Sequence record: PV469800.1
Length of the DNA: 64,000 nt
Source: Escherichia phage HMD-P10
Strand: one strand, 5' to 3'
A program made the translations under genes and the position numbers. This document shows, in pieces, positions 51,296-53,845 of this stretch. Under the pieces are notes generated by a model that was not told the DNA's origin, ran no database searches, and worked only from the letters and a program-made list of their open reading frames with translations. Each line of letters opens with the position of its first letter. Within the stretch, counting starts at the first letter, position 1.

Positions 51296-52711
51296 ATGAG
51301 CGAATTATTTAAACATGCGCACCTTCATGCAGGTCGAACTGAAAATGGTGCTGTAAACCATACTTCATCAATGTCTGCTCTGGTAGACTTCTACAAAGCC
51401 GCTGGCTCAAGCCGTAGCAATGTAGAAATCTTACCAGACCTGTTCTACAAAGCTTTGCGTGAGGATGTTGATGTTGCAGTTCGTATTTTACTGCATATGC
51501 GAGATGTACGAGAAGGTATGGGTGAGCGTAAAGCTTTCCGAACTGTTTTACTTCAAGCGATTGAAGATAAAGTTTTAGAACCTACACAGGTTCTTCGCAT
51601 TATGGATAAGATTGCAGAACTTGGTCGTTTTGATGACTTCAAAATCTTCGTAGGTACTCGTTTCGAGACAGATGCCTTCAAACATTTAGAATCAGCATTA
51701 CTAGACCCTGCAACAGCAGGTTTAGCAGCCAAGTGGTTACCACGAGTAAAACCACGCCATAAACAGTTTGTAAAACGTTTCTGTAAGTTTGCAAACTTAA
51801 GCGAGAAGGAGTATCGCACACTGTTATCTGCACTATCTGATACTGTTGAGCAAAAAATCTCTGCTAATGAGTTTGGTAAGATTGACTACAGCAAGATTCC
51901 TTCACTCGCTGCTGCACGTTACCAAAAACTCTTTAACCGTAAAGATGGGGAACGTTACAAAGCTTACATCGAGTCACTCTCAAAAGGTGAGGCTAAGATT
52001 AACGCTGGTGCTGTTTACCCATACGATGTGATTAAATCTATCAAGTATGGTAATGCAGATGTTGCTAATGAGCAGTGGAAAGCACTACCAAACTGGATGG
52101 TAGAAGGTGAGAACATCTTGTGTATGACTGATGTTTCAAGCTCAATGTCTTGGGTGAATCTTGGTTCAATCACTGCCCTTGATATTGGTGTATCCCTTGC
52201 CTTGTATGTAGCAGAACGCAATACAGGCTGCTTTAAGAATGAGTTAATGGTGTATTCAACAAACCCTCACTTCATCGAACTGAGTGGTGATTTACGAAAC
52301 CGTCATCGTCAGGTGATGCGTCATGTTGAATATGGCTCAACTAACTTGCAAGCAGCTTTTGACCGCATTCTTGAGGTAGGTAAGCGAAACAACTTGACTC
52401 AGAAAGATATGCCAAGTAAGCTTATTATCTTCTCTGATATGGAGTTTAATCAGGTTGATGGTGCAAATGGCCGTACAAACTTTGAAGCAATTCAGAGTAA
52501 GTACAAAAAAGCTGGATATGAGATGCCACAACTAGTATTCTGGTACTTAGCAAACCGTAATGGTACTTGCGAAGTATCTGTTAAGGATAATGGTGTAGCA
52601 ATGGTATCAGGGTTCTCTCCAGCCACTTTAAAAGCTCTGCTTGGTGGTGAGAAGTTTGACCCAATCAGCGTAATGCTCAAAGCAGTAATGATTGACCGTT
52701 ACATCTGGTAA
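51296..52711 (+). CDS. Ro60/Rsr-like protein (TROVE-like N-terminal region + vWA domain)
   Basis: vWA MIDAS CMTDVSSSMS and blocks GSTNLQAAF, LIIFSDMEFN parallel Ro60 AVDVSASMN, GGTDCSLPM, IVFTDNETF as recalled; sits beside tRNA-like RNAs. Confidence 0.45.
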   Translation: MSELFKHAHLHAGRTENGAVNHTSSMSALVDFYKAAGSSRSNVEILPDLFYKALREDVDVAVRILLHMRDVREGMGERKAFRTVLLQAIEDKVLEPTQVLRIMDKIAELGRFDDFKIFVGTRFETDAFKHLESALLDPATAGLAAKWLPRVKPRHKQFVKRFCKFANLSEKEYRTLLSALSDTVEQKISANEFGKIDYSKIPSLAAARYQKLFNRKDGERYKAYIESLSKGEAKINAGAVYPYDVIKSIKYGNADVANEQWKALPNWMVEGENILCMTDVSSSMSWVNLGSITALDIGVSLALYVAERNTGCFKNELMVYSTNPHFIELSGDLRNRHRQVMRHVEYGSTNLQAAFDRILEVGKRNNLTQKDMPSKLIIFSDMEFNQVDGANGRTNFEAIQSKYKKAGYEMPQLVFWYLANRNGTCEVSVKDNGVAMVSGFSPATLKALLGGEKFDPISVMLKAVMIDRYIW

Positions 52712-52729
52712 AAAGTTTTAAAAAGGGTA

Positions 52730-52758
52730 TTGACAATGTGTTTGATACCCTTTAATAT
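52730..52758 (+). promoter_or_regulatory. sigma70-like promoter (TTGACA-17-TAATAT)
   Basis: upstream of tRNA cluster. Confidence 0.5.
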
Positions 52759-52820
52759 GTTCTACATAGAAACGAAATGAGAGCTTTTCTAAGATACTGA
52801 AAAATATTTTAAAAAAGTTC

Positions 52821-52849
52821 TTGACAACCACTAAAAAATAATGTTAAAG
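52821..52849 (+). promoter_or_regulatory. sigma70-like promoter (TTGACA-17-TTAAAG)
   Basis: 28 nt upstream of first tRNA. Confidence 0.45.
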
Positions 52850-52876
52850 TGGTTACATAGAGTTTGAAAAGTTTAT

Positions 52877-52950
52877 CTCTGTTTAGCTCAGCTTGGTAGA
52901 GCGTTCCGTTTGGGGCGGTAAGGCCGGAGGTTCAAGTCCTCCAACAGAGA
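52877..52950 (+). tRNA. tRNA-Pro(UGG)
   Basis: hand-folded cloverleaf: acceptor CTCTGTT/AACAGAG, D-arm GCTC..GAGC, anticodon loop TTTGGGG, T-loop TTCAAGT, CCA encoded. Confidence 0.65.
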
Positions 52951-52960
52951 CCAAATTAAT

Positions 52961-53035
52961 GTTCCAGTAGACAAAACGGTAAAGTCACCACTCTTTCAAA
53001 GTGGATATTTGAGGGTTCAAATCCCTTCTGGAACG
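52961..53035 (+). tRNA. tRNA-Glu(UUC)
   Basis: acceptor GTTCCAG/CTGGAAC, anticodon stem CCACT/AGTGG, loop CTTTCAA, T-loop TTCAAAT. Confidence 0.65.
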
Positions 53036-53045
53036 CCAGTTTTGA

Positions 53046-53118
53046 CAGAAGACCAATTACAGCAAGCTTAATCTTATTCATCTGACACGAAATCGGACAA
53101 AGAAGAGATTTGGTCTGG
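53046..53118 (+). ncRNA. stem-closed structured RNA candidate (Y RNA-like element 1)
   Basis: starts CAGAAGACCA..ACAGCAA, ends TTGGTCTGG; termini base-pair; shared with elements 2-4. Confidence 0.35.
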
Positions 53119-53129
53119 TCATTAAGAAT

Positions 53130-53203
53130 TGCGGGTATAGAGAAAGGGCGTCTCACATGTCTCATTAGCATGGTATCGGCAGGTTCGACTCCTGCACCCG
53201 CCT
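53130..53203 (+). tRNA. tRNA with CAU anticodon (Met or Ile2)
   Basis: T-arm GCAGG-TTCGACT-CCTGC, anticodon loop CTCATTA; acceptor register ambiguous by 1 nt. Confidence 0.5.
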
Positions 53204-53212
53204 CCAATTTTG

Positions 53213-53272
53213 CAGAAGACCGTATGCAGCAACAAACTACTTTTTGCGGATAAAAGAAAAAACACGGTCTGG
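53213..53272 (+). ncRNA. stem-closed structured RNA candidate (Y RNA-like element 2)
   Basis: CAGAAGACCGT..GCAGCAA...ACGGTCTGG; 7-bp terminal helix. Confidence 0.35.
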
Positions 53273-53283
53273 CAATGTATTAA

Positions 53284-53357
53284 GGTTAGGAAGCACATAA
53301 GGTATGTGCGGTCGCCTGTTAAGCGAATGGCACAGGGTTCGAATCCCTGACTAACCG
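53284..53357 (+). tRNA. tRNA-Asn(GUU)
   Basis: acceptor GGTTAGG/ACTAACC, anticodon loop CTGTTAA, T-loop TTCGAAT, CCA encoded. Confidence 0.65.
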
Positions 53358-53369
53358 CCAAATTTAAAT

Positions 53370-53454
53370 GTGTCGTTATCCCGTAGATGGTAGCGGTGGG
53401 GACTGTAAATCCCTTGTCATTGAGACTCGGTAGGTTCGACTCCTACACGGCACA
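53370..53454 (+). tRNA. tRNA-Tyr(GUA), long variable arm
   Basis: acceptor GTGTCGT/ACGGCAC, anticodon loop CTGTAAA, 15-nt variable arm, T-loop TTCGACT. Confidence 0.6.
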
Positions 53455-53463
53455 CCAAATAAA

Positions 53464-53538
53464 GGTTATGTAGTTTAATCTGGTTAAAATACTCCCCTGT
53501 CACGGGAGATGATGAGGGTTCAAGTCCCTTCGTAACCG
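53464..53538 (+). tRNA. tRNA-Asp(GUC)
   Basis: acceptor GGTTATG/CGTAACC, anticodon stem CTCCC/GGGAG, loop CTGTCAC. Confidence 0.65.
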
Positions 53539-53627
53539 CCAAATTATAATAAGTATTTCAAAATGATGTTTGAGAGGGCTATTTAGCCCCTCCCTTAAAG
53601 GGTTCTTACGAGTATCCTTTAAAGGAG

Positions 53628-53701
53628 CAGAAGACCAAATACAGCAAGTTACTTAAAATTTCAAGCCAATTTAATTTTGAAAAATTTAAAACTTGGTCTG
53701 G
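53628..53701 (+). ncRNA. stem-closed structured RNA candidate (Y RNA-like element 3)
   Basis: CAGAAGACCAA..ACAGCAA...TTGGTCTGG. Confidence 0.35.
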
Positions 53702-53714
53702 CTCAACAAATTTA

Positions 53715-53845
53715 CAGAAGACCGTTTACAGCAAAACTTAAACAATCTATTTCTCGGTAAAGAAAAGGCGAAGGTTCGATTCCTTCACTCGGCAGATGTC
53801 GAGTTGGTGTAATGGTAGCACTTAAGATGACAAACAACGGTCTGG
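53715..53845 (+). ncRNA. stem-closed RNA with internal permuted tRNA-like module (YrlA-like candidate)
   Basis: termini AGACCGTT/AACGGTCT pair; inside: T-arm GAAGG-TTCGATT-CCTTC, 3' acceptor ACTCGGC, 3-nt turn, 5' acceptor GTCGAGT, D-arm GTG-TAATGGTAG-CAC. Confidence 0.4.

Follow-up and report, generated by a model that had tools for sequence, protein, structure and literature searches.

The window analysed here is a stretch of 64,000 nucleotides (nt) from Escherichia phage HMD-P10 (sequence record PV469800.1), and the region of interest within it shares 97-98% identity with myoviruses of the Felix O1 type (Felixounavirus), such as Escherichia phage JN01, UAB_Phi87 and Felix O1. An open reading frame (ORF) at 51296-52711 lies directly upstream of an array of 26 tRNA genes predicted by ARAGORN (52877-57900, all on the plus strand), and four small RNA elements, here called E1 to E4, alternate with the genes for tRNA-Glu, Met, Asn, Tyr and Asp, with gaps of 3-8 nt between the elements and the adjacent tRNAs or one another. 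E1 starts 4 nt past tRNA-Glu and ends 8 nt ahead of tRNA-Met, and every tRNA and element downstream of the promoter-like sites at 52730-52850 is on the plus strand. We describe the gene and the four elements as a candidate Ro60/Y-RNA-type system, with the following features.

51227-51256, plus strand: candidate sigma-70-like promoter ahead of the Ro60-like gene, TTGACA-18-TAAAGT, 10/12, consensus match only.
51296-52711, plus strand: gene for the Ro60-like protein, 471 amino acids, ATG start.
52730-52758, plus strand: sigma-70-like promoter 1 heading the tRNA/small-RNA array, TTGACA-17-TAATAT, consensus match.
52821-52850, plus strand: sigma-70-like promoter 2 heading the tRNA/small-RNA array, TTGACA-18-TAAAGT, consensus match.
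53043-53121, plus strand: E1, 79 nt; outer helix UGAC/GUCA, AGA/G loop, inner helix AGACCAA/UUGGUCU, UUACAGCAA, variable interior.
53210-53275, plus strand: E2, 66 nt; outer helix UUGC/GCAA, inner helix AGACCGU/ACGGUCU, AUGCAGCAA, interior hairpin with loop UGCGGAUAA.
53625-53704, plus strand: E3, 80 nt; outer helix GAGC/GCUC, inner helix AGACCAA/UUGGUCU, AUACAGCAA, A/U-rich interior hairpin.
53712-53848, plus strand: E4, 137 nt; outer helix UUAC/GUAA, inner helix AGACCGUU/AACGGUCU, UUACAGCAA, then a permuted tRNA-like module.
53746-53822, plus strand: module of E4, with V hairpin 53746-53768, T arm 53770-53786, closed acceptor-like hairpin 53787-53804 and D arm 53806-53822.

Ro60/Y RNA particles occur in animals, some bacteria and a few phages, and are recognised by the TROVE domain and a CGAA-type motif. 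The initial annotation of this DNA, made from the letters alone, had placed a 471-residue ORF at 51296-52711 and read it as a TROVE-type protein, and the ORF is borne out, with an ATG start. Its product consists of a helical HEAT-type ring (residues ~1-265) followed by a von Willebrand factor A (vWA) domain (~270-455) with a complete metal ion-dependent adhesion site (MIDAS), a motif already proposed in that annotation, whose residues D279, S281, S283, T349 and D381 do not vary among the 40 members of a family alignment. The parallels to the Ro60 vWA domain that had been drawn there also reappear when the family profile is aligned by hhalign with human Ro60 (a sequence confirmed as full-length by a 1224-bit match to 9nen_A), where DVSSSM pairs with DVSASM and FSDME with FTDNE; in this comparison the vWA region alone aligns, with a probability of 33%. 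The TROVE homology expected at the sequence level was found neither in Pfam nor in NCBIfam, and the relationship is visible by structure comparison only. In Pfam the protein matches DUF7788 with 149.3 bits, against a cut-off of 27.1, and DUF2828 with 102.5 bits, against one of 29, and it matches phrog_850 'RNA-binding protein' (PHROG 850) over its full length with an E-value of 3e-183.

The AlphaFold model of the protein is confident (predicted local distance difference test 88.6, predicted template modelling score 0.89). Ro60 structures (Xenopus, human, Deinococcus Rsr and Thermus phage phiLo) make up all ten of its best Foldseek matches in the PDB, at E-values of ~1e-8 across 510-570 alignment columns, and in a library of viral structures it matches phage TROVE proteins and a 'Ro-like RNA binding protein' at E 1e-9 to 1e-8, with the family found also in giant viruses (Pithovirus, CroV, Mimiviridae, Marseillevirus). 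As modelled, the protein shares the Ro60 architecture, that is, an alpha-helical HEAT-repeat ring followed by a MIDAS-bearing vWA domain, but it differs from Ro60 (Rsr) in carrying DUF2828/DUF7788 instead of Pfam TROVE and in an identity of only ~12-15%. In Ro60 itself, Y RNA lies on the outer surface of the ring and the ends of misfolded RNAs in its central hole. Homologues of the window protein are present in 709 phage records of one collection, including mycobacteriophage proteins that are 31-34% identical over their full length and annotated as 'Ro-like RNA binding protein'.

Downstream of the gene, the initial annotation had described four elements with a shared start and a GGTCTGG end, interleaved with tRNAs and able to close by a terminal helix of 7-8 bp, and this description holds in its main lines. 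Perfect matches to the 20-nt pattern CAGAAGACCNNNNNCAGCAA are confined to 53046, 53213, 53628 and 53715, any other match in the window needing 3 mismatches, and GGTCTGG follows every copy (at 53112, 53266, 53695 and 53839); folding yields the helix AGACC../..GGUCU, and the interleaved tRNAs are the five named above. Two details differ, in that three bases rather than two separate CAGAAGACC(A/G) from (A/G)CAGCAA, and that the two bases ahead of GGTCTGG, given as (A/C/T)(G/T), are actually TT, AC, TT and AC. Folding also gives an outer 4-bp helix that had been missed, with a different sequence in each element as listed above, which is parted from the inner helix by the AGA/G internal loop and varies among the four copies in a compensatory manner; its existence sets the boundaries of the elements at the listed coordinates. 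Adjoining the stem is the motif UUACAGCAA, which is predicted to be single-stranded and is common to the element family. A covariance model (CM) of this core (R1) has four matches only in the window: E1 (44.7 bits, E 2.6e-10), E2 (48.4 bits), E3 (44.7 bits) and E4, which scored 21 bits via an alternative pairing, as the core model mis-aligns long elements. The fold of E4 has an energy of -33.4 kcal/mol (z -2.0). The interior of E2 (53236-53256), CAGCAAC.AACU..UUUGCGGAUAA.AAG, recurs almost unchanged in a mycobacteriophage element (L089 3948-3997, with the likeness at 3960-3990), and UGCGGAUAA stands just after CAGCAA in 7 of its 8 occurrences in all the DNA examined; these similarities suggest that the E2-type interior may represent a conserved functional subtype of short RNAs.

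Support for the stem comes from the relatives of this phage. Other Ounavirinae (Suspvirus, Mooglevirus, Bas63) have the four elements as well, and loci whose protein is 48-62% identical (L003, L004, Yersinia phage P778 = L085, L086, L087 and L088) have 3-5 elements each, located after the gene or inside its tRNA array. The helix sequences of these relatives are wholly different (AGUAUC, AGACUCU, AGUGUC, GGACUGU, GGAUUC, GAAGAU, GAAGAA, GUAGCU and others), and the pairing and the (U/A)CAGCAA motif are kept despite these changes. In the slot between tRNA-Glu and tRNA-Met, for example, the AGACCAA/UUGGUCU helix of the window is replaced by AGUAUC/GAUACU in L004 and by AGAAUC/GAUUCU in L086; orthologues picked by position alone retain the helix by compensatory change. 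For the stem-motif core, aligned from 24 sequences, pairing amounts to 97.7% of cells, a figure that is partly built in because the scanner that supplied the non-Felix sequences demanded pairing, and double changes occur at 10 of 11 pairs. The covariation of the core is 0.764, compared to 0.242 in shuffled alignments (none of 500 reach it), and slid controls are 22-41% paired. Because MAFFT could not register the L087 and L088 elements with those of the Felix type, the covariation count and the CM are based on the 24 sequences only. A lack of covariation in the terminal helix had been named at the outset as grounds for giving up the idea; compensatory changes are seen in both the inner and the outer helices, and the terminal stem common to the four RNAs, in two parts that covary, has UUACAGCAA adjacent to it.

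The association between these RNAs and DUF2828 genes extends far beyond the relatives of Felix O1. A CM search of 67 loci with proteins 39-46% identical, together with L087, L088 and the window, gave 40 matches at E<10, with 38 of the 40 on the gene strand; in the distant loci, 28 of 35 matches are same-stranded with the gene and no more than 700 nt away from it, where ~2 are expected by chance (binomial 6e-27). A second, pairing-free test took CAGCAA as its anchor, with controls for strand and distance, in 71 loci with a protein identity of 25-46%, some of which are near-duplicates, so that the p-values are optimistic. On the gene strand and within 1 kb of the coding sequence, the density of CAGCAA is 1.11/kb, compared to 0.28/kb farther out and 0.33/kb on the opposite strand. 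A 7-bp helix formed from the 7 nt lying 2-4 nt upstream of CAGCAA is found for 90 of these 152 copies near the gene (59%), and for 18% of the opposite-strand copies (Fisher 5e-16). In 51 of the 71 distant loci, at least one element lies beside the DUF2828 gene on the same strand. By eye, three clear elements can be recognised beside the gene in mycobacteriophage Rumpelstiltskin, the middle one tRNA-like, three in the leader of the gene in Listeria phage AG20, and two beside the gene in Campylobacter phage F370. Thus the RNA family occurs beside same-strand DUF2828 genes in phages of Proteobacteria, Firmicutes, Actinobacteria and Campylobacterota. At the AG20 locus (L090 4575-6455), the DUF2828 gene is also followed, after 0.6-1.2 kb, by genes for an HD-type 'metal-dependent phosphohydrolase' and an RtcB 'tRNA splicing ligase', the latter 1.2 kb away, a linkage reminiscent of the Salmonella rsr-yrlBA-rtcBA operon (Chen 2014, PMC4201824; PMC7790460).

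A tRNA-like effector module had been cited as a trait of bacterial Y RNAs, and among the window RNAs it is found in E4 and is absent from E1-E3, which in this respect are like YrlB-type short Y RNAs. The tRNA-like domain of the bacterial Y RNA YrlA has the order V, T, AS (a closed acceptor-like stem) and D (Chen et al. 2014, PMC4201824), and E4 has the same order of V hairpin, T arm (GAAGGUUCGAUUCCUUC), closed acceptor-like hairpin and D arm; the Rfam tRNA model picks up its T loop at 53766-53786. MAFFT was used, without structural information, to align 18 tRNA-like elements; all of them have the same T loop, and 97.3% pairing, along with double changes, is seen in the T and D stems, whose covariation is 0.604, compared to 0.179 after shuffling. 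The acceptor-like stem varies among relatives (ACUCG/CGAGU, ACACG/CGUGU, ACCCUUC/GAAGGGU, GCUCCCA/UGGGAGU). In L034, L087 and L088, tRNA-like relatives give full-length matches to the YrlA model RF02553, at 40.9-42.1 bits (E 1e-7 to 9e-6), which are significant yet below the gathering score of 69 bits. The Rfam Y_RNA and YrlA models, which had been suggested as a check, gave no match on E1-E4, even at E<=10 in a search of 971 nt.

Bacterial Ro60 (Rsr) with its YrlA/YrlB or Yrn1 RNAs (Salmonella, Deinococcus, Mycobacterium; PMC4201824) has the same ring and vWA fold, and its loci resemble the window in having 1-5 small RNAs beside the gene, RNAs whose 5' and 3' ends pair and which carry a conserved motif beside the 5' strand. 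As at DUF2828 loci, one of these RNAs has the V-T-AS-D arrangement, and an RtcB gene is linked in some. Encoding adjacent to Ro60, another trait of YrlA, is seen at the Ro60-fold gene of the window and in the 51 distant loci. The window RNAs differ from bacterial Y RNAs in that the motif is UUACAGCAA rather than GNCGAAN0-1G and in being embedded in a tRNA array. Hence the architecture and context are those of Y RNAs, yet UUACAGCAA takes the place of GNCGAA and the scores stay below threshold, which puts these RNAs outside the curated family. Among phages, the Ro60 of Thermus phage phiLo binds adjacent Yrl RNAs and the host polynucleotide phosphorylase (PNPase) (PMC12135203; PDB 9kop, 9l5y). 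Unlike the window system, phiLo Ro60 is a member of the TROVE-domain proteins and its Yrl1 and Yrl2 carry the CGAA motif; a profile search of the PDB gave no sequence-level match between phiLo Ro60 and the DUF2828 family.

A further likeness is to the Class I RNAs of Dictyostelia (RF01414; Kjellin 2021, PMC7919456), which are ~60 nt long with 5' AAG, 3' CUGU and a variable interior. Their terminal stem of 6-7 bp is upheld by compensatory mutations, and beside its 5' strand lies an 11-nt motif, CCUUACAGCAA, in which U3, C6, C9, A10 and A11 are near-invariant; the genes are multi-copy and clustered, have a DUSE (Dictyostelium upstream sequence element) promoter ~60 nt upstream and were reported with 'no evidence in any other organism', and the known direct binder is Rnp1A, a protein with an RNA recognition motif (PMC7919456). 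The modal consensus of 105 distinct phage elements reads AA|AG..|UUA|CAGCAA...|..CU|GU, the window elements read GAAG-ACC..UUACAGCAA...GGU-CUGG, and the consensus of the RF01414 model is GaUcuC-CUUACAGCAA-...-GagAuC-UG. Class I RNAs and the phage family are alike in having a terminal stem kept in structure and not in sequence, and a variable interior. In Class I RNAs (CC)UUACAGCAA stands directly after the 5' stem strand, and the phage elements appear similar there; UUACAGCAA, which corresponds to positions 3-11 of the Class I motif, is exact in E1 and E4 and reads AUACAGCAA in E3 and AUGCAGCAA in E2. Short elements of L087 and L088 match RF01414 at 24.9-26.8 bits (E ~0.01 in a search of 631 nt; gathering score 41.5), where the first-pass threshold of Kjellin was a CM score of at least 25 plus the stem (PMC7919456). 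Class I RNAs differ from the window elements in that they belong to eukaryotes, have DUSE promoters and were reported to occur in Dictyostelia only, whereas the phage locus has sigma-70-type promoters and its elements are longer, have the extra outer helix and give no match to RF01414 at permissive Rfam thresholds. Judged by sequence and predicted folding, the resemblance is strong, and all the Class I hallmarks except the eukaryotic promoter appear to recur in the phage RNAs. Homology between the two is offered as a hypothesis rather than a finding, and one we would presently bet against. We regard with similar reserve the wider proposal that the stem-UUACAGCAA phage RNAs and Class I RNAs may be of the same kind, with DUF2828/DUF7788 proteins as their cognate Ro60-like partners; to go by paper titles only, DUF2828 may also occur in plants.

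The window protein is 98% identical to gp130 of Bas63 (Escherichia phage JohannRWettstein), and the two represent the same gene, which in both phages precedes the tRNA array and is accompanied by the same four elements. The PhageMaP preprint of 2024 (PMC11482910) found gp130 to be Ro60-like in structure and to counter the Ppl defence, with gp130 alone, either on a plasmid or inserted in T7, restoring plaquing on Ppl. Its authors offered the speculation that 'some tRNA genes are possibly Y RNAs' (PMC11482910); the RNAs described here lie instead between the tRNA genes, at sites where the Bas63 record has the ORFs bas63_0137 and bas63_0138.

Taken together, the gene and the four elements are likely to constitute a phage-borne, divergent Ro60/Y-RNA-type ribonucleoprotein (RNP) system, in which the protein would bind the RNAs. 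This reading agrees, with qualifications, with the proposal that the phage carries its own Ro60 RNP beside its tRNA set, and it draws on the fold, the covarying stems, the linkage, the V-T-AS-D order of E4 and the sub-threshold YrlA matches of relatives. The promoters at 52.7-52.85 kb may drive transcription of the RNAs together with the tRNAs, and tRNA-processing nucleases could then free the RNAs, given that the gaps to neighbouring tRNAs or other elements measure only 3-8 nt. By analogy with Ro60, which binds the stem of Y RNA and its GGUCCGA/GNCGAA motif, the protein would bind the stem plus UUACAGCAA, and the variable interiors, either small hairpins or a tRNA mimic, might be adaptors or decoys that engage RNA enzymes of the host, among them PNPase, repair or tRNA-modifying enzymes, and defence nucleases directed at RNA. 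Overall, such a system would shield phage growth from host defence or RNA damage, and the RNP is probably used in counter-defence.

Several observations weigh against an RNP of this type. TROVE (PF05731) is not matched by the protein, a Pfam scan at E<=1 giving DUF7788 and DUF2828 only, and no Ro60 in the PDB is found by phmmer with the single sequence or by hmmsearch with the 40-member profile. All four window elements are missed by the Rfam Y_RNA and YrlA models, and the YrlA motif GNCGAAN0-1G is not in them, the equivalent position being (U/A)UACAGCAA. The non-Felix sequences of the 24-sequence alignment came from a scanner that required pairing, the 71 loci are not all independent, and 20 of them have no element within 1 kb, including those of KVP40-like Vibrio phages and Aeromonas phiAS5. 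Finally, gp130 counters Ppl alone, so at least that activity needs no phage RNAs, which implies that the RNAs may regulate, retarget or add functions and are not obligatory.

That last result also lends itself to a reading in which the RNAs act without the protein, as tRNA-mimic decoys of anticodon nucleases or sponges for host RNA-binding proteins, and their proximity to the gene would stem only from a shared early or tRNA expression module. Stable RNAs of unknown function have precedent in phage tRNA clusters, for example the species 1 and 2 RNAs of T4, and a fifth, unrelated structured RNA lies in the array of the window. However, the linkage persists where there is no adjacent tRNA array, as in the mycobacteriophage locus L089, and it holds whichever side of the gene the elements lie on and in genomes of very different layout, which is the pattern of a protein-RNA partnership such as that of rsr and Y RNAs; we consider independent action of the RNAs rather unlikely. 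The elements could also be bound in cis by the protein or by a nuclease, as sites in the untranslated regions of the gene or in the tRNA precursor that serve autoregulation or guide the processing of the tRNA operon, and not be free Y-like RNAs at all. In Listeria and Campylobacter phages they do lie between promoter and gene start, and hence in the 5' leader, in the mycobacteriophage they are in the 3' region of the gene, and those of the window fill tRNA spacers. Multiple tandem copies with differing interiors, an elaborate tRNA-like module with conserved T and D loops, subtypes conserved across phyla and promoters of the window array apart from that of the gene are nevertheless better explained by stable, trans-acting RNAs, and a purely cis-acting role seems improbable to us. 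Four copies with near-identical termini that form inverted repeats might, lastly, be selfish or structural DNA, such as repeats like those of miniature inverted-repeat transposable elements, or recombination or packaging signals spread in the tRNA region. We rejected this origin as extremely improbable given the syntenic positions in divergent genomes, the stems that change by compensatory substitution and the confinement to the gene strand (38 of 40 CM matches) of elements whose CAGCAA is asymmetric; no target-site duplications are evident. A divergent Ro60/Y-RNA-type RNP is the reading that we prefer over these three.

The same region of the window holds other features, and relatives have a further structured RNA in their arrays.

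50843-51214, plus strand: DUF5681/phrog_4114 gene, 123 amino acids, function not assigned, directly 5' of the Ro60-like gene.
53542-53627, plus strand: spacer from tRNA-Asp to E3 with three stable hairpins, including GAGAGGGCUAUUUAGCCCCUCCC; -25.9 kcal/mol, z -3.8.
53846-53994, plus strand: fifth inter-tRNA RNA, from E4 to tRNA-Lys; -50 kcal/mol, z -6.2, closing helix of ~24 bp.
54244-54272, plus strand: top promoter-like site of the region, 11/12, preceding a gene-free stretch of ~300 nt before tRNA-Arg (54229-54565).
L004 5570-5760, L085 7970-8200, L086 6580-6760 and L088 7652-7893: second structured RNA of relatives, part of which ARAGORN calls tRNA-???.

The order of the DUF5681 gene followed by the Ro60-like gene is kept in L003, L004, L085 and L086, and the DUF5681/phrog_4114 protein could be a further component of the system. 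The RNA at 53846-53994 has no match in an Rfam search and holds a hairpin, C-AGACC-UUAAGCAA-GUCUGG, that echoes the stem and motif of E1-E4. The spacer at 53542-53627 is without a T-tract and is thus not an obvious terminator, and the gene-free stretch within 54229-54565, where Rfam gives only weak tmRNA-type matches (15-22 bits), may be another unannotated RNA. Short minus-strand ORFs run over elements and tRNAs in the window (52956-53207, 53122-53361 and 53712-53942), as they do in Bas63 (L094 16749-17023), where they are recorded as the hypothetical proteins bas63_0137 and bas63_0138; such ORFs are probably spurious. The second structured RNA conserved in the arrays of relatives, ..GAGAGCUUUAG..GGUUCGA..CUAAAGGUAGC..GAGAAAAUAACACGAGGCGAC..GCGCCUACUCUUAA, was not found in the window, and neither was the conserved RNA of relatives with ACACGAGGCGAC. 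In L087 (10393-11440), a relative with a genome of 143 kb, an IS605 OrfB/Cas12f-like TnpB gene lies just past the tRNA array.

Phage Ro60 homologues with Y-like RNAs are already known (Chen 2014, PMC4201824; phiLo 2025, PMC12135203), as are the Ro60-like fold and the anti-Ppl activity of gp130 (PhageMaP, PMC11482910). What appears new is the RNAs themselves, for which we found no prior description in a literature search of incomplete coverage, together with their UUACAGCAA signature, the breadth of their distribution with DUF2828 genes and their likeness to Class I RNAs. These RNAs and proteins point to a much larger sister family of the Ro60 systems, with its own RNA signature, that is missed by Pfam TROVE and by the Rfam Y_RNA and YrlA models, and whose RNAs lie unannotated or under spurious ORFs in hundreds of phage genomes, including those of therapeutic Felix O1-type phages. 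They supply candidate RNA partners for a protein that has been shown genetically to defeat Ppl, and the stem plus UUACAGCAA offers biochemistry a precise and mutable candidate recognition module. They also provide a possible link to the dictyostelid Class I RNAs, which were thought to be lineage-restricted and are of unknown function. If that link is true, Ro60/Y-RNA-type RNPs would have a second branch, independent of TROVE, with members in phages, giant viruses and eukaryotes, and there would be a specific candidate for the partner and function of Class I RNAs, a question that has stood for 20 years.

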